A stretch of 64,000 nt of DNA. It comes from Gammaproteobacteria bacterium. GTDB lineage: Bacteria > Pseudomonadota > Gammaproteobacteria > SZUA-229. Location: NCBI GenBank assembly GCA_030595325.1, contig JAUVDN010000002.1, positions 705-64,704 on the forward strand. Reading direction: 5' to 3'. The position numbers were made by a program, and so were the translations under genes. Positions 1,696 to 54,387 of this stretch are shown here, in pieces. The notes under the pieces are model-generated. The model worked only from the letters and a program-made list of their open reading frames with translations, did not search any database and was not told where the DNA came from. Position 1 is the stretch's first letter; each line of letters begins with the position of its first letter.

Positions 1696-1704
1696 TAAGC
1701 TGTT

Positions 1705-4089: not shown

Positions 4090-4098
4090 AATTTAAGT

Positions 4099-24702: not shown

Positions 24703-25742
24703 GATTCCGCGTCCAGCGGTATGTTCTTGTATTCACCAGTTAAGGTGTTAAGAAAAGCTTTAATATACAGTACCTCGTCAGTAGACAGTGATCGTCCTAG
24801 CTGAGTTTTTCCCATGATGCTGATGGCTTCTTCGATAGTCTCTGCGCTGCCATCGTGTAGATAGGGTGCAGTCACTGCGATATTTCTTAATGATGGTACC
24901 TTGAATACATAGGCATCCACCAAGCGGTCTGTGATGTTTATTCTTCCGTAGTCTGGTTTTTTAATGTCGCCACGTTCAGCGATATAGTTGTAGAAAACGC
25001 CAAACTTCTGATACAGGTTACCACCGATATTGATTCCCTGATGACAGGAGATACAGCCGAGTTCTTTAAAAATTTTATAACCTTTAATCTCGTCATCATT
25101 TAGTATGTCATCTTCACTTCTGAGGTGCTGGTCAAATTTTGAATTAGGTGTAATAAGTGTTTTTTCGAACTCGACGAGCGAGTTGATGATATTTTCTTTT
25201 GTAACGCCATCTTTATAAATAGCGTTAAAGTCATTTGAGAGTTCCTGATCACTACTGATCGCAGTAACGGCATTATCCCAGTTATTATCAAATTCATGAG
25301 TGCTTGTCATTGCCATGTTGATTTGATCTTGCAGCGTCTTAGCAGCACCATCCCAGTTTTGCCTGAAGTTATATTGTGCATTAAAGATGCTGGGTGTGTT
25401 TATAATATGTTGTTCGCCTGATATTGATATCCCGATAGGCAGATTGTCATCGCCACCGGATGTTAGCTGGTGACAACTGATGCATGCGATTTGGTCGTTC
25501 TTAGACAAACGAGTTTCAATAAACAGCTTTTCGCCTAGTTCAGCTTTACCCTTGTCGACATTGATTTTAAGTGGAATAGGGAAGATTGGTTCTTGGCGTA
25601 AGTAGTTTTCACTCTCTGCGAGCACAGCGGTGCTCATTGTACATAGTAGGGATATTGCTATGTATGATGTGTGTGTGGAAAAATTGAACTGTGGCAGGTG
25701 TTTAATTGATAACATTTCGAGCAAAATCGCTGTAAAATCCAT
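24699..25742 (-). CDS. Di-haem cytochrome c peroxidase (CCP/MauG family)
   Basis: Two CxxCH motifs (CISCHQ twice) and a signal peptide. The gene overlaps the downstream GGDEF-EAL gene by 4 bp. Confidence 0.8.
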   Translation of the reverse strand: MDFTAILLEMLSIKHLPQFNFSTHTSYIAISLLCTMSTAVLAESENYLRQEPIFPIPLKINVDKGKAELGEKLFIETRLSKNDQIACISCHQLTSGGDDNLPIGISISGEQHIINTPSIFNAQYNFRQNWDGAAKTLQDQINMAMTSTHEFDNNWDNAVTAISSDQELSNDFNAIYKDGVTKENIINSLVEFEKTLITPNSKFDQHLRSEDDILNDDEIKGYKIFKELGCISCHQGINIGGNLYQKFGVFYNYIAERGDIKKPDYGRINITDRLVDAYVFKVPSLRNIAVTAPYLHDGSAETIEEAISIMGKTQLGRSLSTDEVLYIKAFLNTLTGEYKNIPLDAES

Positions 25743-36627: not shown

Positions 36628-37644
36628 CTAGCCGTGTCTTATTTTTTTTAACGGGTGCTGATTCAGGTATGCATCTAATCCAGGGAAATTTCTTGTGCCG
36701 TTATTCTGTGGTGGTCTGCGACGCAACATACTGAAGTCATTCGCATTTAGAACACGTTTTAGCCTGGCCTGATTTTGTCCTAGGCCATTGATGTAATGTT
36801 TTTCACCTTCGAAGTGTGCAACTTCATAACCATAGACTTTATTGAACAATGTGTTTAACCGTTTCTCTACCTCATTTGAATAAAAGGCAGGTGTCTTACG
36901 CAGCAGGTCTTCACCTGATTCGAATAAAATAACTTCATTGCCCTTGTCATCGACAGTAACGGTCATACCGCCAAGAACGAACTCAGGGTATAAGCGATCA
37001 CGGCATTTTTCAAGATAGCAACGATCTGACATCTGTGCGATTAAGTCAGCTGAGCCTAGCATCTGGCCGAGTAGGTGCCATCTATCGTCAGGTAGGCGAA
37101 TATTCTTCGGTGCTATTTCATAACCGGTGTAATGCACCATGTTGGCTGAAATTTGTGCATATTTTCCCATGTTGACCTTATGCAGGTAACGTTTTAAAAA
37201 ATCGGCACTGCGTGAGACGTGAACAGGTGTGTATTCCGCACCGTTAAAGTGTCGGCGATCACGTTGGTGTCGAATATAACCGGAATCGTGATACAGGGCG
37301 GTGATGATGGCAATTACAGCGCGTTCTGCGCCAATGCGCTGGTCTTTGGCAACACTGCGCTCGTGACCGCTGATAAGACGTGCTAATGCCAACGTCATAT
37401 CCATAGAATGCTGTTTGTCGTGATATAAAGCATCACAGGCTAAATATGTTGGGTAATCACCTTCAAATAAACGCTCACAGTCATCGAATGCCTGCTTTAG
37501 TGCTACTTCATTAAAGGAGTTAAATACACTGCGAAAGATAGTGGACACAGCGTCGTGCACGCTATCTGCGTAAGTGAGTTTTACATTATCCGTAATGTCA
37601 TATTCTGAGCGCCTTTCTTTCATATCGCTTTTCAAATGTGTCAT
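36628..37644 (-). CDS. Hypothetical protein, possible HD-domain phosphohydrolase
   Basis: H...HD-like motifs (ALYHDKQH and ALYHDSGYIRH). The assignment is weak. Confidence 0.35.
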   Translation of the reverse strand: MTHLKSDMKERRSEYDITDNVKLTYADSVHDAVSTIFRSVFNSFNEVALKQAFDDCERLFEGDYPTYLACDALYHDKQHSMDMTLALARLISGHERSVAKDQRIGAERAVIAIITALYHDSGYIRHQRDRRHFNGAEYTPVHVSRSADFLKRYLHKVNMGKYAQISANMVHYTGYEIAPKNIRLPDDRWHLLGQMLGSADLIAQMSDRCYLEKCRDRLYPEFVLGGMTVTVDDKGNEVILFESGEDLLRKTPAFYSNEVEKRLNTLFNKVYGYEVAHFEGEKHYINGLGQNQARLKRVLNANDFSMLRRRPPQNNGTRNFPGLDAYLNQHPLKKIRHG

Positions 37645-37783: not shown

Positions 37784-39988
37784 CTATTTTGAGGTGTGGG
37801 TGAAGCTGCCGTCCCAGTCTGCATCAGGAGGGGTTTCACGGTAATGCATGATACGATCGAGGTAAATTTTATAAATCTTGCGGTCTGGGTCTAGCTGACT
37901 GAGGCCAAAGATTTCTCTTTCAGCCGCGTCCCAGTTCTGTGCGCGGTACTGCTTAATACCGATATGGAATTGCTTGAGCAGTTTTCGGTCAGATTTTGAA
38001 ATATTTTCCAATAAACCCAGTGGTTCGTAGATGGTAACGGGTTTCTTTTTACCCTTAACGCGTACCCGATCGAGTTCGCGGAATTCAAATTCTGGAACTT
38101 CGTGGCGGGTGAATTCACTGGTGATGATATCCACACCGTAGATTTTGGTTAAGCCTTCAAGCCGTGAGCCGAGGTTCACGGAATCACCTAGTACGGTGTA
38201 ATCCACCCGGAACTCTGAACCTTTGTTACCGACATTCATGATTCCGCTACTTACACCGACGCCAACATATATTTCTGGCCACTGTTTTTCGGAAAATTCC
38301 TTTCTTAAGGGGGTCATGCGCTCGACGACGTCGATGGCCGCATTTAGCGCGTGCAGAGCATGCTGCTTATCATCTAGTGGGGCTCCCCAGAATGCCATAA
38401 CGCAATCGCCCATGTATTTATCTATGGTGCCGCGATTGTCATGAATAACCTTTGTAATCGGCGTTAAGAATGCATTGATGTAATCGGTTAGCTCTTTTGG
38501 TTCCAGACCTTCAGAGATAGTGGTAAAACCACGCACATCAGAAAATAAAACAGACATTTCGCGCATTTCACCATCGAGACTGATTTCTTCCATCTTTACA
38601 CTTATTTCATCAACCAGTTCCGGTGGTACGTATTGACCGAAGAGGTGAGCGAGTCGTCGTTTACCACGTGATTCAACGAAGAAGCCATAGGTCATCTGCA
38701 GAGCAAACAACATAACAACGAGTACGACGGATGAAGCTATGGGCAGTACAAGTTGCGCGCTCGTCCAGGCGTAAAAATTAGTGCCGATTAACAGGAGGAT
38801 ACTGCCAATGATAATCAGTGTGGAAAACAGTGCAGAGAGCATTGGCAAGGTGAAAGTCAGGAGGATACCTATAGCGATGATTAAAATAAATTCAAAGCCT
38901 TGCGTGTAACCTGGTGCGTGTAATATTCGTCCATCGAGTATGCCCTGAATGATATTGGCATGCACTTCAACTCCTGGATAAGCAGGTTCGAGAGGAATGG
39001 TTCGCAGATCGAGTAAACCTGGTGCAGAAGTACCAAAGAGTGCAATTTTTCCTTGTAGCTTTGTTTTATCCGCTATTTTATTTAAGACGTCACTTGCTGA
39101 AATATAATCGAAGCTTTTTTGTCTGCCGATGTAAGGGACCAGTATGCCGGATTGATGGTCGACCGGGATGGCTAGTTCACCGATAGTTATCCATTCCAGA
39201 AAAAGATCGTAGGTATCACTGGTTTCTACAACCAGTTCTATAGGCGGTTGACCGGAAGCGACTCTTGCTAAAGCTAAAGCCAGCGACTCATGTAATTCAT
39301 TTTCATATGTCTGCAGTAGTGGTACACGTCTAAACACACCGTCGTCATCTAATAATGGGTTATTGAAAAAACCGCCACTGTAGGCGCTATCCTGAAGCAC
39401 TTTCAGGTTTGCGGTATAACCAACCGTTTTATTTACGGCTAGTTTAGAGAGAATATTTTTATCCAGTTTGGTTATAGCAGTGGGCAGGCCACCTTTTTTT
39501 GTATCGGTGTCCATCACGAAACCCATGACAGTTTTTCTGTCTCTTAAGGATTCTGCAAAACGCAGGTCGTGTTGTAGTGAGGGCATCACCTGATTGTATT
39601 CTTCGATAAATAGAGGGTCGTCCTTCAGCGAACCTTTTGCCATCTTATCGAGCAACTTGGCACCTTCATCGACATCTTCTTCGGCAAACACGATATCGTA
39701 ACCGATGGTTGTAATCTCGTAGTGATCAAATAGAGCATCATTTATTTTTGCGAGAATATTACGGTTCCATGGCCATTGTCCTATTACTTCAAGACTCTTT
39801 TCATCGATATCGATGATGATTACTTTCTTATCGACGTTTTCTGGCAGGGTGATTTTGAGTCGCGCATCATAAGCCTGATTTTCCAGGCTGGTTAAAATCG
39901 GGATATGGATTATATTTCCTACGTGAAGCAGAAATACAAGCGTAAGCAAAAGACTTAATGCGTATCGAATAATTCGTTGAATATCCAC
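37784..39988 (-). CDS. CHASE2-sensor class III adenylate/guanylate cyclase
   Basis: An N-terminal TM helix, a large extracytoplasmic region, a TM cluster, then a cyclase homology domain (FSDVRGFTTISE...GDCVMAFWGAP). Confidence 0.75.
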   Translation of the reverse strand: MDIQRIIRYALSLLLTLVFLLHVGNIIHIPILTSLENQAYDARLKITLPENVDKKVIIIDIDEKSLEVIGQWPWNRNILAKINDALFDHYEITTIGYDIVFAEEDVDEGAKLLDKMAKGSLKDDPLFIEEYNQVMPSLQHDLRFAESLRDRKTVMGFVMDTDTKKGGLPTAITKLDKNILSKLAVNKTVGYTANLKVLQDSAYSGGFFNNPLLDDDGVFRRVPLLQTYENELHESLALALARVASGQPPIELVVETSDTYDLFLEWITIGELAIPVDHQSGILVPYIGRQKSFDYISASDVLNKIADKTKLQGKIALFGTSAPGLLDLRTIPLEPAYPGVEVHANIIQGILDGRILHAPGYTQGFEFILIIAIGILLTFTLPMLSALFSTLIIIGSILLLIGTNFYAWTSAQLVLPIASSVVLVVMLFALQMTYGFFVESRGKRRLAHLFGQYVPPELVDEISVKMEEISLDGEMREMSVLFSDVRGFTTISEGLEPKELTDYINAFLTPITKVIHDNRGTIDKYMGDCVMAFWGAPLDDKQHALHALNAAIDVVERMTPLRKEFSEKQWPEIYVGVGVSSGIMNVGNKGSEFRVDYTVLGDSVNLGSRLEGLTKIYGVDIITSEFTRHEVPEFEFRELDRVRVKGKKKPVTIYEPLGLLENISKSDRKLLKQFHIGIKQYRAQNWDAAEREIFGLSQLDPDRKIYKIYLDRIMHYRETPPDADWDGSFTHTSK

Positions 39989-40899: not shown

Positions 40900-40936
40900 T
40901 GTGTCACCTAGATGTGTCACTTAGATGTGTCTCTAG
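40900..40936. repeat. Short tandem repeat (GATGTGTCAC/T-TA) x3 between convergent pdxJ and histidine-kinase genes
   Basis: The sequence reads tgtcacctagatgtgtcacttagatgtgtctctag. Confidence 0.6.
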
Positions 40937-43710
40937 GGTAAATCTTCAGCTTGCTCATTATTAATTTTAAAATGGGCTACATTTTGAATTGCGTTTAGTA
41001 ATAACGGGATTTCTTTTTCATTATCAAATTTTATATTCTGCATTAAAAAATTTTCTATGCGACTGCTGACCTCCTTCAATTCTGTGGTTCCACAACACCG
41101 GCTGGCACCATGTAATTTATGCACCTGATTACGTAGCTCGGTAAGGTCATTGTTGTCTGCAGCAGAAATGATAGCCTTTCTGTAATTGTCCAGCTCTGCT
41201 CTAAGCATGCCAAACAATTCATAGGCCAGTTCCTTATTATTACCGGTGAATTCTTTTGCGAGTTCGATTGAAAATATTGAGTTTTCAATAATTTCTGCGC
41301 TCTCATTGTTATTAACTTCTAAAGATTTACTTGTATTTATCGGTTCTTTTAATACCCATTGTTCAATAACCTTTTGGAATATGTTGTCATTGACGGGTTT
41401 TATCAATATGCCATTCATTCCAGATTGAATAACTTTTTCTTTCTCCTGTGGCATCGCATTTGCAGTTAGTGCAATTATTACGGGCTGGTTACCCGGTGTG
41501 GTTTCACGAATTTTTTGTGTTGTCTCGTAGCCGTCTAATCCAGGCATATGCAGGTCCATAAAAATCAAATCATATGAGTTCAGGTTTGCAAAGTTGATGG
41601 CTTGAGCACCGGAATGAGCGGTTGTCACTCGTGCTTTATGTTTGTGCAATATGATTTCTGCTAAGCGCAAATTAACATCGTTATCATCGACGATCATGAT
41701 GTTAATATTTGACCAGTTGTTAGAAGTATCGCTTACCTCATTGCTGGTATCTATGCCAGACTCTTCAGTTTCTTTATCAAGTGAGTTGATGAGTTTTTGT
41801 TTGATGATTTCAACTTTTTCAGAGGTGAATGCGGCATTATTGAAAAGGTGCTGATGTAGATTTCTTAATTCACTGTGTGAGCGTGTGCTGGCAACCAAAA
41901 GTGATGGTTTGGTTAAGCTGAACTCGCCTATATGAGTAGTTGTTATACTGTTTATTTCTTTACTGCTTACAAACGTGACGATGATGTCGTTTTCACTTTC
42001 AATTTCTGCAAGATTTTGCATATTGTCTAGAGAATAGTTATTTACTGTACATCCCCAACTGTTAAATAATGTTTTATATGTCTGCTGTGCAATGAAGTGA
42101 TTGCTGATAAAGGCGACATTTTTTCCATATAGTTCCGAATTTTTCTTTTCAGAAATTTCACCTTTAATCGGTACGCTGAACCAGAAGGTAGAGCCTTCGC
42201 CTTCGGTACTGTCGAAACCAATTTCACCATGCATCAGCATGGTAAGTTTTCTTGAGATTACCAGACCTAGTCCTGTGCCGCCAAAACGTCGTGTAATGCT
42301 GGTGTCGGCTTGGGTAAAAGCTTTGAATAGTCTCTTTTTAACCGTACTGCTCATGCCGAGTCCGGTATCAGAGACGGTGAATTTAATACTGTTTTCGGTG
42401 TTGCCGAGTTCACCTTTGGCTACTTGTAAGTATACATAGCCGCTATCGGTAAATTTTATTGAATTGCCAATAAGATTAGTAATAATCTGGTGGATTCTAA
42501 ATGGATCGGAATGAATGATTGTCGGGACATTAGCTTCAATGCGGTAAAACAGTTCAATATTTTTCTCTAATGCACTGGTGCTAAGAAGATTGATGATGTC
42601 CTCGATAATATCGATTAAATTAAACTGGCTGGTAGCTATCTCAGTTTTACCGGCTTCAATTTTTGAGAGATCAAGGACATCATTAATAATTGCTAATAAA
42701 TGTTTTGAAGACTTATGAATGGTGCTCGAGTAATCTTTTTGTTGTGATGAAAGTTTTGTGTCTTGAAGCAACTCAGTAAATCCGATGATCCCGCTGAGAG
42801 GGGTTCTTATCTCATGACTCATGTTAGCTAGAAACTCTGATTTGGCATTATTGGCATAGATAGCTTTAGATCGAGTGATATCCAGTTCTGCGTTTCTTAT
42901 CTCTAATTCTTCGAGTGTTTGCTGTAACTCTTCTGTGTAAACATTTAACTGGGTTTCCATGTCTGTGCGCGAATCTTTTAATTCGATTCTCATGTGATTA
43001 ATGCAGGACTCTAGAATGCCGAGGTCACCAGTAGAATTACGGTCTATCTGAGTGTCTAAATCACCTGCTGATATATTTCTGACGGTATGTGTCAGGGATT
43101 TTATCGGTTTTGTGATATAGCTGCTGATTCGCAAAGTAACCAGTGTTGTTAATAGTAGCAGAGCTAGAGTTATCAATGTGCTGTGTTCTATCTGTTCTAT
43201 TTTTTTTTCAGTGGCATGCTGAGTGGAAATAGTAATGATAACTTTTCCAATCTCATTTGTTGTATTGCTAATCGAAGATCTGTTTGCAAGATTGTTATTG
43301 CCTGGATCTACTTCCACATGTTCTGTGATAATGGGCTCACTGAAAATAAGAGTGTTTTTATTACTAAATAACACTTTCAGTATGGAGTCATTTTTTTCCT
43401 CGAATTTTTCAGGAGAGCTTATGTCCAGGATGTTGTTGTAATACTTATCAAGTATTTGAATGCGGAGGACAGGATTGTTTTTTATGATAGTGGCAACTAA
43501 GGGTTCGATTAGCTCCGTATTGCCTGAGTAAACTGCGTATTCTGCAGCTGGAGATAACTGTTTTGCAATGAGGGTGCCGTTTTTATTAAGAGAATCTGAT
43601 ATGAAATCGAACTGATCCCAGATGTAATGTGTTGACAAGATGCTGGCAACGACGAGTGCGGGCAGAACTGCAATGATGATTATCTGTTTGTTTATACTTA
43701 GTCGTATCAT
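40933..43710 (-). CDS. Hybrid sensor histidine kinase/response regulator (periplasmic sensor, HAMP, HisKA, HATPase, REC, HPt)
   Basis: H-box SHEIRTPL, an ATPase domain, a receiver domain (IMIVDDNDVNL...DLIFMDLHMPGLDG) and a C-terminal HPt (HKLHGASRCCG). Confidence 0.85.
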   Translation of the reverse strand: MIRLSINKQIIIIAVLPALVVASILSTHYIWDQFDFISDSLNKNGTLIAKQLSPAAEYAVYSGNTELIEPLVATIIKNNPVLRIQILDKYYNNILDISSPEKFEEKNDSILKVLFSNKNTLIFSEPIITEHVEVDPGNNNLANRSSISNTTNEIGKVIITISTQHATEKKIEQIEHSTLITLALLLLTTLVTLRISSYITKPIKSLTHTVRNISAGDLDTQIDRNSTGDLGILESCINHMRIELKDSRTDMETQLNVYTEELQQTLEELEIRNAELDITRSKAIYANNAKSEFLANMSHEIRTPLSGIIGFTELLQDTKLSSQQKDYSSTIHKSSKHLLAIINDVLDLSKIEAGKTEIATSQFNLIDIIEDIINLLSTSALEKNIELFYRIEANVPTIIHSDPFRIHQIITNLIGNSIKFTDSGYVYLQVAKGELGNTENSIKFTVSDTGLGMSSTVKKRLFKAFTQADTSITRRFGGTGLGLVISRKLTMLMHGEIGFDSTEGEGSTFWFSVPIKGEISEKKNSELYGKNVAFISNHFIAQQTYKTLFNSWGCTVNNYSLDNMQNLAEIESENDIIVTFVSSKEINSITTTHIGEFSLTKPSLLVASTRSHSELRNLHQHLFNNAAFTSEKVEIIKQKLINSLDKETEESGIDTSNEVSDTSNNWSNINIMIVDDNDVNLRLAEIILHKHKARVTTAHSGAQAINFANLNSYDLIFMDLHMPGLDGYETTQKIRETTPGNQPVIIALTANAMPQEKEKVIQSGMNGILIKPVNDNIFQKVIEQWVLKEPINTSKSLEVNNNESAEIIENSIFSIELAKEFTGNNKELAYELFGMLRAELDNYRKAIISAADNNDLTELRNQVHKLHGASRCCGTTELKEVSSRIENFLMQNIKFDNEKEIPLLLNAIQNVAHFKINNEQAEDLP

Positions 43711-44723
43711 AGCGACTCGTCTAGTTTTATTATTCCGGCTTGCATGATATCGTTTTTCAATTTATCGATATCCGGAATGTTAATATTTAATGCTCTGGAA
43801 ACCTGTTTATTGATATTTATATCAAAATAATCCGGGTAATTAATTTGTTTTGAAAATTGGTTTCCAGTGTCGAAGTATTGCTTTATGAGTTTGACTGCGC
43901 TCTGTGCAATTTGCTCTGTATTGCTATTCACCGAAGCGAGTGCGCCAGCATTTACAAAATTCTTTGAGAATCCTATAACGGGTTTTCTGAATCGATAACT
44001 GGTCAGCAAGATATTTTTTATATTTTTTCTGTTGTAGATAGTGCTGTCAGGGTGAGCGAGCAAAACATCTGAGTGGTTTAGCGCATGTTTTATTTTAGCT
44101 GTCAGGTTCTCATTAACTGTCGTACTTATTATGTATGTTTTAATATCATATCTGTTGGCGCATTGTTGTATTGTTTTGGTATCAACAGGTTTGCTCTGGC
44201 TGTTTAGAATGCTGATGGTTTTCCAGTCTTGACTGAAATGTTTGATAAATCCTATCTGTCTGCAAAAGGGTTGAGTCATGTACAGGATGGCGTCGTTTTT
44301 ATTTCGACTTTTGTCTAGTTTGTATTTATGAGGATTAGTAGAGATAAATAATTTTTTTATTTCAGGGTATTTCTTATCGGCACTAAGTATTCCGTCTAGC
44401 CCGATGCCAATTATTATATCGGTCTTACTGTCTACAGCATCTATTGTATCTTCAGGTCGTACTTCGGAAGCAACCACGTTTGCACTTTTAAGATTTGAAT
44501 CATTTAATATATTACTGATGATGCTTCTGTGATAAGGATTGCCTGATGATGAAAGAATGAATACATTATGTGTTAGCGGCTTCTTTTCATCTGTGGCTGT
44601 ATTATTACCCTGGACGTCAGCATGTATATTCTGCGGAAGAATTGTGACAAGCAACAGGAGACAACTAAACAAGCGGAATAACTTGTTTAGTTGAAGAACT
44701 CCTTGTTCACTAATGCGTATCAT
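43707..44723 (-). CDS. Periplasmic substrate-binding-like protein (ABC-type uncharacterised periplasmic component), sensor partner
   Basis: A signal peptide on a protein of about 340 aa. It has a 4-bp ATGA overlap with the downstream hybrid kinase gene. Confidence 0.5.
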   Translation of the reverse strand: MIRISEQGVLQLNKLFRLFSCLLLLVTILPQNIHADVQGNNTATDEKKPLTHNVFILSSSGNPYHRSIISNILNDSNLKSANVVASEVRPEDTIDAVDSKTDIIIGIGLDGILSADKKYPEIKKLFISTNPHKYKLDKSRNKNDAILYMTQPFCRQIGFIKHFSQDWKTISILNSQSKPVDTKTIQQCANRYDIKTYIISTTVNENLTAKIKHALNHSDVLLAHPDSTIYNRKNIKNILLTSYRFRKPVIGFSKNFVNAGALASVNSNTEQIAQSAVKLIKQYFDTGNQFSKQINYPDYFDININKQVSRALNINIPDIDKLKNDIMQAGIIKLDESL

Positions 44724-44740
44724 ATTTAATAATCTAATGA

Positions 44741-46831
44741 TTAAAAGTTCAGTCTGAAATCCAGATAAGCCAGTGTCGTATGGATTACATTTGGTGCAGT
44801 GTTGCTACTGGGGGTCTCCTGATAGTCGCTATAATCATCGAGCAAGTTTCTTAAGATGAGGGAAATGCTTCCATTGCTTTTATTAAAACGAAGGTTTCTT
44901 GATAGTTTTAAATCCAGAGTGCTGTAATCATCAGTGCCGCCACGTGAATCGGTCCATTTAAATGCTTCAACATAGTAATAGGCAATACTGCCACTATAAT
45001 TTTCATTGAACTGTTTGCTAGTTAAAAACGAAAAGCTATGTTGCGGCGCAGACGTTGCGATTGAAGTATTGTTACTATTCAAGTTAATGATAGCGCCGCT
45101 TGCTATTGCCCTCAGTGTCCTGTCAATACGGTAATCCAGCTCTAACTCTAAACCAGTAGTTGTACTTTCAATTTCATTTTGAAAGACTCTGACTGTGTTA
45201 CCTTTGCTAGGGTCGGTAAGATCATTTGGTACGTTGTCTTGATCATTAAATGCAGTAGCGTCCTCTTGGACGGTATCGATGAAGTCATTGATATCATCAT
45301 GAAACAGTCTGGCATTAAATAATAATGAAGAATTTAGGTAGTTACCAAAGTAAGCGATTTCTCGACTGATTATGCGTTCATTTGTTAGACCTAAACCTGA
45401 GTTGAGACCACCAATAAATGGCTGATCAACTAAGGTAATTATTGTAGGCGGACTTAGAAGTGTTGCTTCCTTTGTGTAGACCCTGTCAGCTTTTGCTTCA
45501 AAAATAAATGGGCTGCGTATAGCCTGGCTGATGCCTAATCGAACACTGTGTTGTTGATTAAAGCTATGCGTATAGGAGATTCGCGGTGAAATTTCAGTAT
45601 CAGTAAAGTCGTTTTTTTCTACCAGAGCACCGATATTAATGATGTTACTCTGATTGATGTGCCATTCGCCATTAGCAAATGCGCGGTACTGATTGTTGGT
45701 TACATCGTCATCGGTGCCTAGGTAGAGCGGTGCTTCAACGATATCTGCCTGCGCGCTTAATCCCCAGACTATTTTAAGTGAATCAATTGGATTGAAAAAA
45801 TGTGTGAGTTCTAGGTTATGACGTTCGGCTTTAATGCTGTCGTTGAAGTCGAGGTCGAATGTATCAAAGCCAGAAATGGCTATGTCATTGATTCGGTATT
45901 GATCATCTTTGTCGTTAAGGTTGTAATAATATTGCAGTTGTATAGTGTTATCCTGATTTATGGATCTTTCCCATTTGATGAACTGGAATAGACTAATATT
46001 CTCTACCGTTCGTGCTGATGGGATTAGGCCGTCATAGTTTTGATCTGTATCTTGCTTGTTTATGCCGTAGCCGCCCTGGTATGAAAGTGAGCTGTTATTG
46101 TCTATCTGGTAATCGAGGCGGTAGTCAATATTGTTACTCATCACGTCATCGGGGTAGTCAAAGCTGTTGTCGCTATTGAGGCCTGAGTCGTTATAACTCG
46201 ACCCTGTGATTCGATAATCTAGCTTTCCGTTACTGCCGCCATAACGGTAGGTAAGGTCAGCTATATCATTATTGCCAATATTAGACTGTACGTACGAACC
46301 CTGATCTTCAGCGGCAGTTCGAGTGATGATGTTAATTGCTGCCTGAAAACTGTTGGAGCCGTAGGTGGCAACGTTGGGTCCGCGGGAAACCTCAATACGC
46401 TCGATGTCGTTTATATTAACCGGTACTGCTTTCCAGTTGATGCCGCCTAAGAATGGGTCATAGACAGAACGGCCATCGATTAGTACCTGCATCTGTTTGG
46501 AAAATTCATCGCTGTGACCGTGATAGGCAACGACATATTTAGGTTCTGAACCAAATTCGTTGCCGCTGTAACCCACCTGCATGCCGGGAACAAGGCGTAA
46601 GACTTCGGGGATATTTCTAGCGCCGGATGCTTCGATAGTTTCACGGTCGATAACTGTAATGCTTACCGCGGCATCAGCAATCGGTTGCTCAAGGCGGTTA
46701 GCAGAGAGAACGATGGGCATGTCGAAAAATAGCTCATCTTCTGATGCGTATGCCGATATGGAGCTAAGTGATAGCGAAAAACCGAGTAGGTAATTAATAA
46801 ATCGGTAATTAATTCTTGGCATGAATTTCAC
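44741..46831 (-). CDS. TonB-dependent outer-membrane receptor
   Basis: Signal peptide, an N-terminal plug region, a 696-aa beta-barrel-rich sequence, and a C-terminal aromatic residue (…FRLNF). Confidence 0.85.
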   Translation of the reverse strand: MKFMPRINYRFINYLLGFSLSLSSISAYASEDELFFDMPIVLSANRLEQPIADAAVSITVIDRETIEASGARNIPEVLRLVPGMQVGYSGNEFGSEPKYVVAYHGHSDEFSKQMQVLIDGRSVYDPFLGGINWKAVPVNINDIERIEVSRGPNVATYGSNSFQAAINIITRTAAEDQGSYVQSNIGNNDIADLTYRYGGSNGKLDYRITGSSYNDSGLNSDNSFDYPDDVMSNNIDYRLDYQIDNNSSLSYQGGYGINKQDTDQNYDGLIPSARTVENISLFQFIKWERSINQDNTIQLQYYYNLNDKDDQYRINDIAISGFDTFDLDFNDSIKAERHNLELTHFFNPIDSLKIVWGLSAQADIVEAPLYLGTDDDVTNNQYRAFANGEWHINQSNIINIGALVEKNDFTDTEISPRISYTHSFNQQHSVRLGISQAIRSPFIFEAKADRVYTKEATLLSPPTIITLVDQPFIGGLNSGLGLTNERIISREIAYFGNYLNSSLLFNARLFHDDINDFIDTVQEDATAFNDQDNVPNDLTDPSKGNTVRVFQNEIESTTTGLELELDYRIDRTLRAIASGAIINLNSNNTSIATSAPQHSFSFLTSKQFNENYSGSIAYYYVEAFKWTDSRGGTDDYSTLDLKLSRNLRFNKSNGSISLILRNLLDDYSDYQETPSSNTAPNVIHTTLAYLDFRLNF

Positions 46832-49292: not shown

Positions 49293-49697
49293 AGGTTTGT
49301 TTTGTTGTAGTTAGGTAACAATATAAGCCTTATTGTCGAAAATGCTTACAAAAAATTACTTGTAAATTCAATCTAAAAATAACTCTCGTTGTATATCTAA
49401 ACCTGGCGCGTGCAGAATGGTTTTACGGACGTAGAAAGAAAACTGTTTGCGCTATTCTGGACGGACTTGAGATTGATGAACAACACATCGGTCTGTTGCA
49501 GATTCATGAAGACCTTGGTGTGCGCGCTCATCAGCCTATTCCTTTCTTGAGTCGTACAAACAAACTGAATGCATGGGTTGGCATGTTGTTGCGCAAGTAA
49601 GATAGCCTCTGGGATGGTAATTATCCGTTCCGGTTCTAATATTAACTTTGCCCTGCTTATATTTTAACTCTAAATTTTAAACATAAAATATAGATAC

Positions 49698-49738
49698 AAA
49701 TTTTAGATATTAATTTTAGATATAAATTTTAGATATAA
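49698..49738. repeat. AT-rich 13-bp tandem repeat (AATTTTAGATATA) x3
   Basis: Direct reading shows three tandem copies in the convergent intergenic region. Confidence 0.7.
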
Positions 49739-49779
49739 AGCAATCAACAAAAATATTAGACAAACTGTCTCAGTATAAA

Positions 49780-49798: not shown

Positions 49799-50509
49799 TC
49801 AGCTCAGCAAGAACCCCATCTTTACGCCGGCAACTTCAATCACGTCACCATCGGCTAACGGGTGTTGTTTACCAATCTCGGTGTCATTGACCAGTGGCAT
49901 CTTTTTATCTTTTCCTGCATCAACTACGATAAGGAAATAACCTTTAGGTCGGCGTGTGATGGCCGCTACTTGAACGCCGGGTCTGCCTAGCGTGGTTAAT
50001 ATCTTCGTCAGCTGTAATTCTTTACCTGTATTGGCGCCAGACATGAGTTTAAGTTTTGCTGGTCCAGGACCGCTTGTTGAGGTGCCAGCAGAGGCGAGGT
50101 CAGCAGCAATTTTGCCAATAGATTTTTCTAGGTCTTTGTCGGCTTCTTCGGTTACCGGCATGCCCTTGGCATCCGGACGTATAATCATGGTTTTTTCGAA
50201 TTCACTCTCGCCATCGTCAGCGTTGGCATTTTCATACTTAAGCTCGTGTTTGCCTATGACGATGCTGTCACCATTTTGCAGAGCATGTTTGGTGATTTTG
50301 CTGCCGGCTATAAAGGTACCATTGGTGCTTCCCAGATCTTCGATGAACGAATCATTTAAGATGGTAAGAATTTTCGCGTGATTACCACTGACGGCAAGAT
50401 TGTCGATATGGATGTCGTTATCAGGTTTGCGCCCGATAGTTAGAATCTCTTTATCAAGTTCGAATTCTTTTACAAAGTCGCCGTTAAAGCTGAGTACTAG
50501 TTTAGCCAT
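49799..50509 (-). CDS. Protein with two FHA domains (N- and C-terminal)
   Basis: N-terminal LTIGRKPDNDIHIDNLAVSGNHAKI...GSTNGTFI and C-terminal TLGRPGVQVAAITRRPKGYFLIVVDAG...LVNDTEI FHA patterns. Confidence 0.75.
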   Translation of the reverse strand: MAKLVLSFNGDFVKEFELDKEILTIGRKPDNDIHIDNLAVSGNHAKILTILNDSFIEDLGSTNGTFIAGSKITKHALQNGDSIVIGKHELKYENANADDGESEFEKTMIIRPDAKGMPVTEEADKDLEKSIGKIAADLASAGTSTSGPGPAKLKLMSGANTGKELQLTKILTTLGRPGVQVAAITRRPKGYFLIVVDAGKDKKMPLVNDTEIGKQHPLADGDVIEVAGVKMGFLLS

Positions 50510-50563
50510 GGTGATTCCTTACAATACATTTTGTATGTATTTTTTATTATAAATGTTTCTATA

Positions 50564-51388
50564 TTAAGAGAATATGTCAAAAAAACGAGAAAACAAGCTA
50601 TTTTTAGCTGGAAATGATTTTATTGGTTTAATGAGTAGGGCAGATATATTGTCTTTTCCGCCATGTTCATTGGCCAATCGAATGATTTCCGTCGCTGCTT
50701 TTTCCAGATCATCATAATTATCAAGCATTGCTGTCTTGATAAGATGATCTTCTATCATATCGGTAACACCATCGGAACATAACAGATAGATATCATCAAC
50801 CATTGCAATATCTTCCTGGATATCGATAACGACGGATGCATCTATACCAATTGCCCGGGTGACCAGGTTTTTATTTAATGAGTTTCTTGCCTGTTCGGGC
50901 GTGTAGAAGCCACGGTCAATCAGCTCCTGCATCAGACTGTGGTCACGTGTCACTTGTTCTAGCTCCATGTCACGCAGACGGTACAACCTTGAGTCGCCAA
51001 CATGTGCAACAGTAAAGCGGTTATCGTAAAACAATGTTACGACGACAGTAGTGCCCATGCCGCGATACTGTGAATTTGCTTCCGAAGAATCGTGTACATT
51101 TTTATTTGCAAGGGTAACGGCTTCGTGAATCAGCAGGCTTTCAACGCTATAACCGGTTTCTTCATCAGTATCCCCGGTTTTAAGCTTTTTGAGTTTTTCA
51201 GAGACGGTATCCAGTACCGTGCTAACGGTAATTGCGCTAGCCATTTCACCGCCACGATGACCACCCATACCGTCAGCGAGAACAGCAAGACCGATACTTT
51301 CCTCACAGCCGATGGCGTCCTCGTTATGATCGCGAACCGAGCCAACGTCTGTTTTCCCGTGCAGAAGTAGTTTTCCTTTTAGACTCAT
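50564..51388 (-). CDS. PP2C-family Ser/Thr protein phosphatase
   Basis: GKTDVGSVRDHNEDA...LADGMGGHRGGEMAS...DNISAL. 274 aa. Confidence 0.85.
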   Translation of the reverse strand: MSLKGKLLLHGKTDVGSVRDHNEDAIGCEESIGLAVLADGMGGHRGGEMASAITVSTVLDTVSEKLKKLKTGDTDEETGYSVESLLIHEAVTLANKNVHDSSEANSQYRGMGTTVVVTLFYDNRFTVAHVGDSRLYRLRDMELEQVTRDHSLMQELIDRGFYTPEQARNSLNKNLVTRAIGIDASVVIDIQEDIAMVDDIYLLCSDGVTDMIEDHLIKTAMLDNYDDLEKAATEIIRLANEHGGKDNISALLIKPIKSFPAKNSLFSRFFDIFS

Positions 51389-51391
51389 GTT

Positions 51392-54079
51392 TTAGCCCTT
51401 GTTTTCTGCTGCCATGATTTTCAGACATTTGTTGATATCTTCAACCATTTCTTTACCGCGCTGGTAACGTTTTTCGACGTCTTTTTCCATTGCGCGATTG
51501 ATGATAACAGTGACGCAGCGTGGTAGCTCAGGATTAATGGTTTCTGGGCTTTGGTGCGCTTCGTTGGCAATTTTGTACATCAATGAGGCCATTGAATCGC
51601 CAGTGAAAGGCAGTTTACCGGTAACCATCTGGTAGAGCATGACACCGAGCGAAAAGATGTCTGACTGACCGGTAACTTTTTGTCCGGCTAATTGTTCTGG
51701 TGACATGTAGGAAGGTGTACCTAAAACCATGCCTGTTTTTGTTTTGCTGGAGTCGGTGATGCGTGCAATACCAAAATCAGTAATTTTACATTCATCGGTT
51801 TCAGGGTCCCACATGATGTTTGCGGGTTTGATATCACGATGAACTACGTTGTTCTGGCTGGCATAATCGATACCATCGGCAGAGCGCTGGATAATAGATA
51901 GCACCTGTTTCAATGGCAGTATGGTATCGGGTTTTATATATTTGCTTAGATCAGTTCCTTTCAGGTATTCCATGGCGATGTAGGCGAGGTCGTGTTCTTC
52001 ACCGGCATCAAAGATAGTAACGATGTTTGGATGATTCAGACGACCAGCAGTTTCAGCTTCACGGAAGAATCGCTCTTTAACCTCGTCCAGTTCGTCATCT
52101 TCAAACTCTTGCGACAAGGCCATGGTTTTGATTGCAACGACACGTGAAATTTTAGGGTCTTTACCCAGATAAACAGCGCCCATGGCGCCTTTACCCAGTT
52201 CGCGTTCCACTTCGTAACGGCCAAGCATTGGTTTTTCAACACCGCCACCTTCTATTATTAGGGTGCCGCCAGGTGAGGAGCCGCCACCACCGCCAAGAAT
52301 AACGGTTTCTTCTAGCGACTGGGCACGGTTAGAGCGCGTCTTGATATCACGGAATTTGTCATCGAACTCAGTCATGCAGTCGTACACTGATTTGGCTTTG
52401 TTGAACTGGCGTTTGCGCTCAAAATCCAGTGCCAAATTATAGAATAATTCCATTACAGATTTATCCATTGGCAGCTTGCGGAATTTTTCAAACGCCATAT
52501 CCAGTTGTCCCTGTCCTTGCAGCGACAGACCCAGCATGCGGTTGCTTTCGGCAGATTCAATATCAAGTCTCGCTTTGCCTTTCTCAGACATAAAGAAGCG
52601 TTTAGTGGTTAATAGTATGTGCCCACCTGCGAGTAGCAGGGCAGGCATCATCAGCTGTAGCCACATGCCTTGCGTAGTCATCATAATGTAGTGAATGATA
52701 AATAAGGCGAATAAAGTGATACCGGTGATAGCAAAACCGACAACAGCATTTAGTTTTGGCAGTAGCAGCATGAGATACAGCGCAACTAAAAGAAAGGCGC
52801 CTATTCGAGCATAAAAGCCCCACTCAGGCTCAACGAAAAAATCTTCGTTAAGAATACTTGAGACGGAATGCGCCAGTGTCACCACGGGTGACATAGTCGG
52901 GTCGATTGGTGTCACAAAAGTATCACCAACACCCAGAGCGGTTGCACCAATCAGGACAATTTTGTCTTTGTACTTATCAGCAGGAATCTTGCCTTGCAGT
53001 ACATCAAAGAATGAGTCGATAGGAAAGGCGCTTTTAAAATCTTCATCGTGGTAGAAGAAGGTGTTCATTAACGAGTAACCATCTGTTTTGATGTTCAGGC
53101 GCCCTAGCTGCACATCTGAACCAACAGTAATCTGAATGTCATTAATGTCCAGATTTAAACCTTTCGCTGCTAACATCAACGCCATTGACGGGTAGAGGTC
53201 ACCATAATAATCGATAATAAGCGGTTCGGTGCGAATGCCGCCATCAACATCGGGCAGTGCGACTAAAGCACCAATAGCATTCGCCTGTTCACCCAGGATA
53301 GCTATCGGCAGGTAAGCATCACTCATCGGTAGCGGCTGGAAACCTTCCGGGTTAGTAATAGAGTTATCTATAATATTGTCTTCGAGTAATCGGTTCTGGG
53401 TTACATAGTCTGGAAATGGATTATCCGGCTCACCAAAAGGTGTGCCTGGTACGTAGGGCATATTGAACACGACATTGCCGGCATTTTGCATGCTCTGGGC
53501 AAGTATATTGTCTGTATCCAGAATGGTCTCAGCTGAGTTTATGTACTCCATGTATGCGGCTAGCTCTTCAGCAACCTGATTGCGTAAGGGAGACGCTTCC
53601 AGTGTGTCAGCAATATTATCAACGGCAGTTTTGCCATTAGCATCACGTTTGTCTTTGACCAGTTCACGGCTGCTTTCAATAACTTCGGCAAGTTCTTCAA
53701 CATAGCCTGGCACGCCAGAGATGCTGCTTTCTTCAAAGGCTTGTCTTAGTTCACGAAGAAAATGCAGGCCGGGATCAAGTTGAGGTTCTGAAAAAAATAC
53801 GGTTTGACCAACGGCTTTGGCGCCACCTTCGGCGAGGATGTCATGCATCTGTGCGTGAATATCACGAGACCAGGGCCAGCGACCTATGTTGGCAATACTT
53901 TGGTCATCGATTGCGATGATGGCTATCTTGTCACTTGCGAATCGATTCGATGATTTGACACCGAAATCGTATGCGTTTCGTTCCATGCTGGCGATAAAGT
54001 CAGAGCCAGAAAGTGTCAGAAAAATAAATGTAATGATAAGACCGGTAAACCAGTCACTTTTTAAAACTCCGCTCTTCAT
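51392..54079 (-). CDS. CHASE2-sensor transmembrane Ser/Thr protein kinase
   Basis: An N-terminal TM helix, a roughly 380-aa extracytoplasmic region, a 3-TM block, a Gly-rich linker, and a C-terminal Hanks kinase domain (LGKGAMGAVYLG, VAIKTM, HRDIKPANIM, DFG). Confidence 0.8.
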   Translation of the reverse strand: MKSGVLKSDWFTGLIITFIFLTLSGSDFIASMERNAYDFGVKSSNRFASDKIAIIAIDDQSIANIGRWPWSRDIHAQMHDILAEGGAKAVGQTVFFSEPQLDPGLHFLRELRQAFEESSISGVPGYVEELAEVIESSRELVKDKRDANGKTAVDNIADTLEASPLRNQVAEELAAYMEYINSAETILDTDNILAQSMQNAGNVVFNMPYVPGTPFGEPDNPFPDYVTQNRLLEDNIIDNSITNPEGFQPLPMSDAYLPIAILGEQANAIGALVALPDVDGGIRTEPLIIDYYGDLYPSMALMLAAKGLNLDINDIQITVGSDVQLGRLNIKTDGYSLMNTFFYHDEDFKSAFPIDSFFDVLQGKIPADKYKDKIVLIGATALGVGDTFVTPIDPTMSPVVTLAHSVSSILNEDFFVEPEWGFYARIGAFLLVALYLMLLLPKLNAVVGFAITGITLFALFIIHYIMMTTQGMWLQLMMPALLLAGGHILLTTKRFFMSEKGKARLDIESAESNRMLGLSLQGQGQLDMAFEKFRKLPMDKSVMELFYNLALDFERKRQFNKAKSVYDCMTEFDDKFRDIKTRSNRAQSLEETVILGGGGGSSPGGTLIIEGGGVEKPMLGRYEVERELGKGAMGAVYLGKDPKISRVVAIKTMALSQEFEDDELDEVKERFFREAETAGRLNHPNIVTIFDAGEEHDLAYIAMEYLKGTDLSKYIKPDTILPLKQVLSIIQRSADGIDYASQNNVVHRDIKPANIMWDPETDECKITDFGIARITDSSKTKTGMVLGTPSYMSPEQLAGQKVTGQSDIFSLGVMLYQMVTGKLPFTGDSMASLMYKIANEAHQSPETINPELPRCVTVIINRAMEKDVEKRYQRGKEMVEDINKCLKIMAAENKG

Positions 54080-54300
54080 TATTGAGCCCCTTTGGTTTTA
54101 TTTTTATTGTGTGACCAAGGCAAAAAATGAATTTGACTTGAGCTTATAGTTTTTTGTTTATAGTTATTTAGCAGGAATTTAAACTTGTATATTAATGGGC
54201 TTAAAGTCCGGATAAAATGATTTTAGTCTTTAAAATCACATTACTTATCAATACTAGTAAAAATTAATAATAAAAACAATCAGTTTAGGGAAATGAAAAG

Positions 54301-54342
54301 CGGTAAGTTCCAAGTTTTATGACAATTACTTGTAACTTACCG
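54301..54342 (-). terminator. Intrinsic terminator downstream of sppA
   Basis: A long imperfect hairpin (CGGTAAGTT.CAAGT...ACTTG.AACTTACCG). It is followed on the minus strand by CTTTTCATTTCCC. Confidence 0.5.
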
Positions 54343-54387
54343 CAGTCGATAGAGAGAAGGTGCTGCTTATTTTGGAGGTAGGTTGTC

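Follow-up and report, generated by a model that had tools for sequence, protein, structure and literature searches.

The three contiguous minus-strand genes at positions 49799-54079 of the 64-kb stretch of DNA analysed here (the window) encode a transmembrane Ser/Thr kinase with a CHASE2 sensor, a PP2C phosphatase and an FHA protein and, judged by their intact catalytic residues, form a genuine, functional Hanks-type signalling operon. Gene neighbourhood and sequence pointed to a CHASE2 class III adenylate cyclase, encoded at 37784-39988, as most likely the partner or output of this triad. On the same grounds, a GarA-like phospho-switch that couples the receptor kinase to cAMP output is tentatively proposed, with a probability that we place slightly short of even. 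The preliminary description of this DNA had found no evident target of the module within the window; that view is revised by the cyclase, since in many relatives the gene right after the FHA gene is an orthologue of the cyclase gene.

Results

ORF calling recovered three intact and closely packed reading frames exactly where they had been placed before, and their Pfam and NCBIfam matches bore out the kinase, phosphatase and phospho-Thr-reader module of the preliminary description. The PP2C gene starts 3 nt after the kinase stop codon, the spacing between the PP2C and FHA genes is 54 nt, and an AT-rich intergenic region of 308 nt (54080-54387, minus strand), the presumed promoter region, lies 5' of the kinase gene; these features are consistent with a single operon. 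A ribosome-binding site, AAAGGGG, sits 8 nt ahead of the kinase ATG. A scan of 54080-54387 for the sigma-70 consensus returned no site, and the promoter was thus not located.

The first gene (51392-54079, minus strand) encodes a kinase of 895 aa with a Pfam CHASE2 match at aa 18-434 (E 1.6e-49, 169 bits; 52778-54028, minus strand) and a Pkinase match at aa 622-873 (E 7.7e-57; 51461-52216, minus strand). In the hydropathy scan, TM1 spanned roughly aa 11-32 and a block of TM segments roughly aa 420-469. This layout is the common one for CHASE2 proteins and agrees with the extracytoplasmic sensor proposed earlier, here predicted to be periplasmic. The catalytic residues, whose presence had been left to closer alignment, were all in place: LGKGAMGAVY (GxGxxG), VAIK, HRDIKPANI (HRDIKPxN), DFG and SPE, together with an activation loop, SSKTKTG, that carries a TxT pair. 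Moreover, the domain aligned with Staphylococcus aureus Stk1 (4eqm) and Mycobacterium tuberculosis PknB (E about 2e-51) with matched catalytic motifs. By these motifs, the protein is a catalytically intact, PknB-like RD kinase, and its relatives comprised more than 120 clusters of 76-94% identity in uncultured Gammaproteobacteria.

Two Thr-containing motifs lie in the pre-catalytic linker of the kinase (52244-52312, minus strand): EETVILGG at aa 590-597 and GGTLIIEGG at aa 604-612. Both are putative sites of the pT-x-x-I/L type at which the kinase may autophosphorylate and an FHA domain may dock. Of the 29 CHASE2-kinase orthologues with this linker region, from both Gamma- and Betaproteobacteria, most carried the pattern [E/S]-[E/D/G]-T-[V/I]-[I/V/L/M]-[L/F]-G. 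Cyanobacterial CHASE2 Ser/Thr kinases, which are described from genome surveys only, also have an N-terminal CHASE2 domain fused to a Hanks kinase domain, and no function or PP2C/FHA partners were described for them in that source (PMC2176072). The proteobacterial family differs from them in having its own TPR-like juxtamembrane segment and the Thr-motif linker.

The second gene (50564-51388, minus strand) encodes a PP2C Ser/Thr phosphatase of 274 aa, which matched the NCBIfam Stp1/IreP model with 236.1 bits (cut-off 230) and Pfam PP2C_2 with an E value of 3e-13. The metal-binding Asp motifs are kept, and the motifs RDHNEDA, DGMGGH, VGDSR, CSDGV and GGKDNIS were found. In all related loci with upstream sequence, the PP2C gene lay directly 5' of the FHA gene, even where no kinase or cyclase was nearby, and this gene pair was the sole invariant feature across the loci.

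The third gene (49799-50509, minus strand) encodes an FHA adaptor of 236 aa, made up of a canonical FHA domain, a disordered linker and a degenerate FHA-like domain. An AlphaFold2 model built from a 122-sequence alignment had a mean pLDDT of 83, with both domains above 90 (the C-terminal one also given as about 90) and the linker at aa 98-120 below 50, a predicted disordered segment. In the N-terminal domain (aa 1-96; 50222-50509, minus strand), Pfam FHA matched at aa 24-86 (E 1.3e-21) and the pThr-binding residues G26-R27, S41, H44 and S61-T62-N63 are retained; among 122 relatives, G26, R27, S41, H44, N63, G64 and T65 were invariant and S61 and T62 nearly so. Its nearest solved relatives were GarA, Mb1858 and OdhI, both by sequence (E 2e-12) and by Foldseek (E 2.6e-9, target TM-score 0.79-0.93), and the matches included the self-bound phosphorylated forms of GarA and OdhI (2kfu and 2kb3). 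The top NCBIfam matches of the whole protein were likewise OdhI and FhaB; the OdhI score was 62.5 bits (cut-off 200).

Along the linker, an acidic stretch gives way to a Ser/Gly/Thr-rich one, in line with the preliminary description. Within this otherwise variable segment, the motif F104-E-K-T107-M-I-I-R-P (50174-50200, minus strand) is conserved: F104 and T107 were present in 122 of 122 relatives and M108 in 121 of 122, and position +3 was I or L in all 122. By analogy with GarA and OdhI, the motif is a candidate phospho-acceptor and self-ligand of the FHA domain, and a likely phospho-switch site. The linker of the kinase keeps a similar E-x-T-hydrophobic-hydrophobic-L motif.

The C-terminal domain (aa 150-236; 49802-50062, minus strand) carries the signature LTTLG[K/R]PGVQVAxITRRPxGYF. 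Its FHA match (from about aa 150; E 0.11) was under the Pfam threshold, whereas hhalign related it to the N-terminal FHA domain of the family with a probability of 97.6% (E 3.4e-12, 81 columns). Compared with the N-terminal domain, it lacks two loops, the Ser/His loop through a deletion of 12 residues, and the STN loop. Among 22 members, 17 matched Pfam Yop-YscD_cpl (best E 1.3e-5) and 16 matched FHA (best E 1.4e-4); at 50% identity, 958 clusters reached E ≤ 1e-3, and 385 of these reached E ≤ 1e-10. The AlphaFold2 model of the domain is all-beta. By its alignment, this domain is an FHA-fold relic that lacks the pThr-binding residues. The idea of a dual-FHA protein was therefore right as regards homology at both ends, but only the N-terminal domain keeps the residues for binding phosphothreonine.

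The cyclase gene (37784-39988, minus strand) encodes 734 aa with Pfam matches to CHASE2 (E 5e-51) and Guanylate_cyc (E 5e-19). The catalytic motifs FSDVRGFT, DKYMGD and GDSVNLGSRLE were conserved in 17 orthologues, and the Lys/Asp pair indicates ATP specificity. Its CHASE2 domain shares just 24% identity with that of the kinase, no module common to the two proteins was detected besides CHASE2, and outside its catalytic motifs the cyclase lacks a conserved Thr motif. In the window, the gene lies 9.8 kb downstream of the triad on the same strand, beyond six other genes, and is thus not co-transcribed with it. In many relatives, orthologous cyclase genes (E 1e-105 to 1e-259) stand beside the FHA gene, in operons whose genes overlap or are 16-46 nt apart. 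One related locus (L083) has the window's frame of FHA gene, rlmD-cysM-pdxJ and cyclase gene, minus the TonB/HK insertion. The betaproteobacterial operons run on into genes for a class II cAMP phosphodiesterase, a cNMP-binding protein, a GAF-PilB-like ATPase, a GAF-HD protein and a pilin.

An orthologous cyclase adjoined the FHA gene, or lay within about 9 kb in the fetched flank, in 17 of 30 CHASE2-kinase loci and in none of 31 loci with another kinase or none; these loci are phylogenetically related, and the counts do not represent independent events. The other 13 of the 30 had no cyclase within 8 kb, and a few of them (e.g. L003 and L007) end before a cyclase would be reached. Counted from the cyclase, with the same dependence among loci, the FHA gene was adjacent in 24 of 29 informative loci of the closest clade, in 10 of 23 of the next and in 0 of 6 distant ones. 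This linkage was seen in no fewer than four distinct flanking contexts. At some loci non-CHASE2 kinases accompany the PP2C-FHA pair, and at others the pair has neither an adjacent kinase nor a cyclase, so the cyclase cannot be the partner of the C-terminal domain in every lineage.

Discussion

For the proposed coupling of the kinase to cAMP output, we infer the phosphorylation and binding steps, and the direction of control, as follows. The CHASE2 domain would pick up an extracytoplasmic cue, and the kinase would autophosphorylate, probably including the linker threonines of EETVILGG and GGTLIIEGG. The FHA protein would bind these phospho-sites through its canonical domain and be phosphorylated at T107, which its own FHA domain would then capture, as in GarA and OdhI. 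Self-binding would alter the contacts open to the highly conserved C-terminal FHA-like domain, and PP2C would reset the switch. With the CHASE2 adenylate cyclase as its most likely partner or output, the module would set cAMP levels.

Several known systems share parts of this scheme. The CHASE2-TM-class III cyclase architecture is also that of Sinorhizobium meliloti CyaD1, CyaD2 and CyaK, which make cAMP on an external cue (PMC13001267), and of Campylobacterota cyclases whose gene clusters include a cAMP phosphodiesterase (PMC9239204). An outer-membrane protein (NsrA or FecR-like) and a Crp-type regulator belong to those systems, for which the literature found describes neither a Hanks kinase nor a PP2C or FHA partner. 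Precedents for the phospho-switch control of nucleotide cyclases are given by Pseudomonas SiaABCD (PMC9239204) and by Bdellovibrio DgcB, an FHA-GGDEF protein that was among the structure matches of the adaptor (6hbz and 6hc1) and whose FHA domain binds its own phosphorylated tail in 6hc1. In both, Ser/Thr phosphorylation, an FHA or STAS reader and reversal by PP2C gate a cyclase. They control c-di-GMP synthesis, whereas the enzyme here is a class III adenylate cyclase; moreover, the reader is fused to the cyclase in DgcB and separate here, and SiaB, unlike the present kinase, is not of the Hanks type.

Alternatively, and with perhaps one chance in four, the FHA protein might mainly target the phosphatase. 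A well-established precedent is plant KAPP, a receptor-kinase-binding protein that combines FHA and PP2C domains on one polypeptide. The FHA domain would dock on the autophosphorylated kinase, with the conserved Thr motifs of the kinase linker as docking sites, while the C-terminal domain would hold or regulate PP2C so that the kinase is reset; the cyclase would then be a neighbour that senses related cues outside the control of the module. The invariance of the PP2C-FHA pair, kept without a nearby kinase or cyclase, speaks for this arrangement. However, neither the invariant T107 motif inside the adaptor nor the operon linkage to the cyclase and cNMP genes, seen from both sides, is explained by it, and a signalling pathway still requires an output.

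It is rather unlikely that the protein is a metabolic switch which inhibits 2-oxoglutarate dehydrogenase E1, glutamate dehydrogenase or a similar enzyme until phosphorylation releases it. GarA of M. tuberculosis and OdhI of Corynebacterium glutamicum, which act with PknB/PknG and PstP, resemble the present system in their small size, the nearest solved FHA domain, a conserved Thr motif in a disordered segment beside that domain, a PknB-like Hanks kinase and a PP2C partner, and the adaptor family occurs in lineages without an adjacent cyclase. Their motif is an N-terminal ETTS, whereas FEKTMIIRP lies C-terminal to the FHA domain; they have no counterpart of the conserved C-terminal domain, and the OdhI score fell below the family cut-off. 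Furthermore, the conserved neighbours at the 164 related loci included no odhA, gdh or glt; the linked genes are those of the cyclase and of cNMP proteins, not of TCA or glutamate enzymes.

The analogy with PpkA-PppA-Fha1 (TagE-TagG-TagH) drawn in the preliminary description held for the general logic of a membrane Hanks kinase, a PP2C and an FHA protein, the presumed kinase substrate and reader, encoded together. It did not extend to the FHA protein itself, whose FHA domain is closest to GarA and OdhI in sequence and structure. Control of a type VI secretion system (T6SS) encoded elsewhere in the genome is highly improbable: a weak NCBIfam TagH match (E 4e-11) and JGI records naming some family members "predicted component of type VI protein secretion system" favour it together with the identical three-part logic, but the TagH score was 43 bits against a cut-off of 120, the adaptor has 236 aa against 420 model positions, PpkA carries a von Willebrand A domain in place of CHASE2 as its sensor, and the machinery linked in relatives, beside the cAMP genes, is type-IV-pilus-like. 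In agreement with the earlier statement that no T6SS genes are nearby, a Pfam scan of the window ORFs of at least 120 aa found no T6SS family, and none appeared among the conserved neighbours or searched families of the 164 related loci.

In conclusion, the operon that this trio shares with a cAMP-making enzyme in relatives hints at a hitherto unstudied connection of protein phosphorylation with cAMP signalling.

Organization and components of the operon

Three contiguous minus-strand ORFs occupy 49799-54079, exactly where the preliminary description had placed them, and encode a CHASE2 kinase (51392-54079, 895 aa), a PP2C phosphatase (50564-51388, 274 aa) and an FHA protein (49799-50509, 236 aa). 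The kinase stop codon is separated from the PP2C start codon by 3 nt and the PP2C gene from the FHA gene by 54 nt, and an AT-rich spacer of 308 nt with a good ribosome-binding site lies 5' of the kinase gene. The neighbours are housekeeping genes: an SppA-like peptidase gene, a HAD phosphatase gene and rluC lie upstream on the same strand, with rne divergent, and rlmD and cysM lie downstream in convergent orientation. Scans of the window for promoter and terminator consensus sequences gave no signal above shuffled expectation, and the Rfam scan returned one tRNA only. An AT-rich tandem repeat with a 13-bp unit (TAAATTTTAGATA; 5.3 copies, 82% matches) was located at 49671-49739, 60 nt 3' of the FHA stop codon and within the 506-nt convergent intergenic region between the FHA gene and rlmD.

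The kinase was identified as a CHASE2 sensor by its Pfam score (aa 18-434, E 1.6e-49, 169 bits against a cut-off of 26.3) and by hydrophobic segments at aa 11-32 and 420-469 in the hydropathy analysis, which agree with the usual CHASE2 topology of a transmembrane segment N-terminal and transmembrane segments C-terminal of the domain. The Pkinase domain (aa 622-873, E 7.7e-57, 193 bits against a cut-off of 31.7), with its catalytic Lys, HRD...N loop, DFG and APE/SPE, is that of a Hanks-type Ser/Thr kinase and aligned to S. aureus Stk1 (4eqm) and M. tuberculosis PknB with E of about 2e-51. The Gly loop, VAIK, HRDIKPxN, DFG and SPE are all kept; therefore the earlier reservation that catalytic residues might be missing could be set aside. 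Assignment to the Stk1/PknB PASTA kinase family (NF033483) was rejected at 317 bits against a cut-off of 450; the match took in model positions 5-271 of 563, which is the kinase domain only, and the sensor is CHASE2 instead. The activation loop holds a T-K-T pair. Moreover, the pre-catalytic linker carries the conserved motif [E/S]-[E/D/G]-T-[V/I]-x-L-G-G (here EETVILGG, aa 590-597), often followed by G-T-L-I-x-[D/E]-G; it is kept in most CHASE2-kinase orthologues of both Gamma- and Betaproteobacteria, and it resembles the motif around T107, a threonine in the linker of the FHA protein. The PP2C protein belongs to the NCBIfam family Stp1/IreP (NF033484), having passed the curated cut-off (236.1 bits against 230) with the full model (1-232) covered and the metal-binding Asp motifs present. 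These data demonstrate that an intact receptor kinase, a PP2C phosphatase and an FHA reader lie within one operon, and we have high confidence that they constitute a genuine phospho-signalling module.

Architecture of the FHA protein

The FHA protein had been described as carrying FHA domains at both ends, and both ends are indeed related to the FHA fold; however, only the N-terminal domain (N-domain) is canonical (PF00498, aa 24-86, E 1.3e-21, 77 bits against a cut-off of 20.7). The residues for phospho-threonine binding in the N-domain (G26, R27, S41, H44 and S61-T62-N63-G64) are conserved across 122 relatives. The C-terminal domain (C-domain) of about 90 residues stayed below the Pfam threshold (13.4 bits against 20.7, E 0.11) and lacks the phospho-threonine-binding Ser, His and STN loop. 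When the C-domains of 22 relatives were scanned singly, 17 matched Yop-YscD_cpl (best E 1.3e-5) and 16 gave weak FHA matches (best E 1.4e-4). Comparison with the family's own N-domain by hhalign gave a probability of 97.6% (E 3.4e-12, 81 columns); relative to the N-domain, the 12 residues that bear the Ser-x-x-His loop are deleted, and the Ser/Thr-Asn-Gly loop is swapped for a variable segment in which only Gly-Lys/Arg is kept. An AlphaFold2 model, calculated from a 122-sequence alignment of diverse relatives, gave pLDDT values above 90 in both domains and below 50 in the linker (aa 98-120), and the all-beta model of the C-domain (pLDDT about 90) together with the hhalign match indicated homology to the FHA beta-sandwich. 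The C-domain is thus below threshold yet FHA-homologous, and in the protein a canonical FHA domain is therefore joined by a disordered linker to a degenerate domain of FHA fold. A profile search with the C-domain sequence matched no solved structure.

The linker is variable except for the motif F104-E-K-T107-M-[I/V]-[I/L]-R-P, in which F and T occur in 122 of the 122 relatives and M in 121. T107 has I/L at +3, and pT-x-x-I/L is preferred by many bacterial FHA domains (cf. 3po8/3poa). The solved proteins nearest to the N-domain by sequence were Mb1858/GarA (E 2e-12) and OdhI, and the ten best Foldseek matches (E 2.6e-9, target TM-score 0.73-0.93) comprised nine GarA/OdhI chains and one Ki67 FHA domain. 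Among the sequence and Foldseek matches, 2kfu and 2kb3 are the closed, self-bound forms of GarA/OdhI, and the Foldseek match 6hc1 is DgcB, a c-di-GMP cyclase under phospho-switch control. Furthermore, a search of 1.8 billion representatives with the C-terminal 118 aa retrieved 958 clusters with E<=1e-3 and, under the stricter limit of E<=1e-10, 385; the majority of matches were proteins of 200-300 aa with the matched region at the C-terminus, and many showed an additional, weaker matched stretch.

Distribution of the family

Uncultured Gammaproteobacteria from marine and hydrothermal sites are rich in close homologues of all three proteins (80-95% identity), and on one contig of 1.08 Mb the genes follow the order seen in the window. 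A scan of species-representative genomes with a 10-sequence alignment of the FHA family yielded at least 587 candidate relatives. The best 80 of these all cover both domains and are mostly recorded as Gamma- or Betaproteobacteria, with Steroidobacteraceae, Woeseiaceae, Sterolibacterium, Sulfuritalea, Sideroxyarcus and Burkholderiales among the taxa. In the loci anchored on these best 80, the PP2C-to-FHA gene pair is invariant and a kinase gene usually lies 5' of it, the type of kinase differing by lineage: closer relatives have a full CHASE2 domain, Woeseiaceae a reduced one, and many Steroidobacteraceae loci a short non-CHASE2 kinase or none. In Woeseiaceae-type loci with the reduced CHASE2 kinase (L031, L060, L071, L074, L077 and L078), an MBL gene resembling class II phosphodiesterases was found four genes upstream of the kinase gene, with radA, a CorC-like gene and a membrane protein gene between them; this proximity may reflect either functional linkage or lineage synteny.

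Linkage to a CHASE2 adenylate cyclase

No target had been evident within the window to the preliminary description. A candidate partner is nevertheless present, namely a CHASE2 class III adenylate cyclase (37784-39988, minus strand, 734 aa), orthologues of which (E 1e-105 to 1e-259) directly adjoin the FHA gene in many loci. Its Guanylate_cyc domain scored 69 bits in Pfam against a cut-off of 21.9 and keeps both metal-binding Asp residues, the transition-state Asn/Arg and the Lys/Asp pair, a signature of ATP specificity in class III cyclases; FSD, DKYMGD and GDSVNLGSRLE are conserved in 17 orthologues. The CHASE2 domains of the kinase and the cyclase share only 24% identity, so a recent duplication was rejected. 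Downstream of the cyclase gene, at a distance of 139 nt, lies a 338-aa ORF (36628-37644, minus strand) that matched no Pfam family; it has H..HD..D-like motifs and a partial, sub-cut-off match to the Npun_R2479 family of HD-domain metalloproteins (E 5e-13), and may encode a phosphohydrolase acting with the cyclase. No homologue of this ORF was found beside the cyclase in other loci.

Among CHASE2-kinase loci with at least 3 kb of downstream sequence, the orthologous cyclase gene lay within the fetched flank in 17 of 30, as against 0 of 31 loci with another kinase or none. The kinase, PP2C, FHA and cyclase genes are kept together despite differing flanks: the four-gene set lies between dapF and nth in L084, and behind a divergent pair of cNMP-binding/rhodanese and GAF-HD genes in L009, L012 and L049. 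In L083, from a hot-spring gammaproteobacterial MAG, the order is kinase-PP2C-FHA, rlmD-cysM-pdxJ and cyclase, which is the frame of the window without the three genes lying there between cysM and pdxJ (40933-46831, minus strand). Relative to L083 these three genes are inserted, and so the triad has been split from the cyclase gene. They are co-directional, and their products are a TonB-dependent receptor of the TOL_0244 type, a periplasmic protein resembling ABC_sub_bind and a BarA/GacS-like hybrid histidine kinase that scored 663 bits where the cut-off is 890. All three genes are also conserved together in L001, L003 and L007.

In a metagenome scan with a cyclase alignment (80 loci), the FHA gene was adjacent in 24 of the 29 informative loci whose cyclase shared 47% identity or more with the Sideroxyarcus orthologue (25 with the frameshifted L144 included), in 10 of 23 at 40-47% identity and in 0 of 6 below 40%. 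In L093, a typical betaproteobacterial cluster, co-directional genes with overlaps or tiny gaps encode, in order, the CHASE2 kinase, PP2C, the FHA protein, the CHASE2 cyclase, a class II cAMP phosphodiesterase, a cNMP-binding/rhodanese protein, a GAF-MshEN-T2SSE (PilB/MshE-like) ATPase, a GAF-HD_5 protein and a type IV pilin; in another locus, L081, the gaps after the FHA gene are 44, 21 and 16 nt. The ATPase was present in 34 loci and the pilin in 16. Operon linkage of the triad to the CHASE2 cyclase and to cNMP genes was seen from both the FHA and the cyclase side. This continuation of the operon into the ATPase, GAF-HD_5 and pilin genes (12120-16798 in L093, and 33 other loci, e.g. L057, L081, L085, L089 and L100) suggests that, in the betaproteobacterial relatives, a pilus-like machine under cNMP control is what the pathway finally drives. 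The window contains no homologue of the cNMP-binding/rhodanese protein, the class II phosphodiesterase, the GAF-HD protein, the GAF-T2SSE ATPase or the pilin.

Two further loci of the window were recorded. At 21121-25742 (minus strand), a 347-aa di-haem cytochrome c peroxidase (CCP_MauG) and a 1193-aa DAHL-GAF-PAS-GGDEF-EAL protein are encoded by genes with a 4-nt overlap, and the pair may serve peroxide- or redox-linked c-di-GMP signalling. At 547-4638 (plus strand), an AAA_5 (MoxR-like) ATPase gene is followed by one for a DUF2201 metallopeptidase/VWA-like protein and by ORFs of 374 and 179 aa, for which no Pfam match at E<=1e-8 was found.

Discussion

GarA and OdhI are switches in which a phosphorylated Thr beside the FHA domain is bound in cis. 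By analogy, the kinase would autophosphorylate at its activation loop and linker Thr motifs, the FHA domain would dock on those sites, and T107 would be phosphorylated and bound in cis as in GarA; this would alter the availability of the C-domain, which would act on the cyclase (or on PP2C), and PP2C would reverse the process. As a whole, this scheme is given a little less than an even chance of being correct, and the cyclase is regarded with moderate confidence as the output. Several observations weigh against the cyclase as output: it lies 9.8 kb from the triad in the window, no cyclase is nearby in 13 of the 30 CHASE2-kinase loci, and the PP2C-FHA pair also occurs without cyclase linkage. 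Furthermore, a search of the cyclase orthologues for a conserved non-catalytic Thr motif, a possible FHA ligand, found none, and no docking module shared by kinase and cyclase was found. Homology between the TPR-like juxtamembrane segment of the kinase and the C-terminal helical extension of the cyclase was ruled out (hhalign probability 16%).

The invariant PP2C-FHA pairing would also be accounted for if the FHA protein, like KAPP, targeted PP2C to the phosphorylated receptor kinase, a possibility that we consider unlikely though worth retaining. A metabolic regulator resembling GarA is suggested by the similarity of the FHA domains, but family cut-offs, architecture and neighbouring genes all disagree, which makes it quite improbable: the FHA protein was rejected from the GarA/OdhI family (NF041660; 62.5 bits against a cut-off of 200), and whereas GarA and OdhI have an ETTS-type motif N-terminal to the FHA domain, here the protein opens with the FHA domain and the Thr motif follows it. 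The threonine-phosphorylation pathway of type VI secretion (PpkA-PppA-Fha1/TagH), to which the operon had been likened, was rejected as extremely improbable, since the FHA protein scored 43.3 bits against the TagH cut-off of 120.25 (TIGR03354) and T6SS genes are absent both from the 64-kb window, the preliminary description having noted none nearby, and from the conserved neighbours of 164 related loci, where it had allowed that they might be found. In some JGI records (P0445, P0460), members of the FHA family bear the name 'predicted component of type VI protein secretion system'; the name appears to be one given generically to FHA proteins, does not count as evidence of T6SS linkage and is an annotation trap for the family.

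CHASE2-fused Ser/Thr kinases have been catalogued in cyanobacterial surveys (PMC2176072), and CHASE2 adenylate cyclases have been studied in S. meliloti (PMC13001267) and occur clustered with a phosphodiesterase in Campylobacterota (PMC9239204). SiaABCD places a c-di-GMP nucleotide cyclase under phospho-switch control (PMC9239204), and a PP2C domain is present in fungal adenylyl cyclases (PMC12710969). In the open-access literature searched, no paper was found on a CHASE2-kinase/PP2C/FHA operon, its family or a cyclase link; therefore the module is of an ordinary type, and its adaptor architecture and its well-supported genomic link to cAMP signalling are undescribed. In a broader reading, one CHASE2 receptor, the Ser/Thr kinase, would gate another, the adenylate cyclase, by way of a dedicated FHA/pseudo-FHA phospho-switch adaptor that PP2C resets. 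Such a two-receptor circuit, as yet undescribed in bacteria, would connect Hanks-type phosphorylation directly to cAMP signalling; it would be widespread among environmental Beta- and Gammaproteobacteria and would extend in Betaproteobacteria to a GAF-regulated type-IV-pilus-like machine. We regard this reading as tentative and more doubtful than probable.

Hanks-type kinase/PP2C/FHA modules are common in bacteria. To our knowledge, their outputs are known in few cases, namely T6SS firing, the mycobacterial cell envelope and GarA/OdhI metabolism, and CHASE2 receptors, although common, have almost no known signalling partners. In environmental Beta- and Gammaproteobacteria the FHA family spans hundreds of protein clusters. 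It offers an adaptor that is small and highly conserved and in which a single threonine is invariant, and its gene is reproducibly linked in operons with those for an adenylate cyclase, a phosphodiesterase, a cNMP-binding protein and a pilus-type ATPase. If this link is functional, it would provide a clear, testable case of Ser/Thr phosphorylation governing cAMP synthesis in proteobacteria and would assign a role to a degenerate FHA fold. In the organism of the window, the output of the triad would be sought first at the cyclase.
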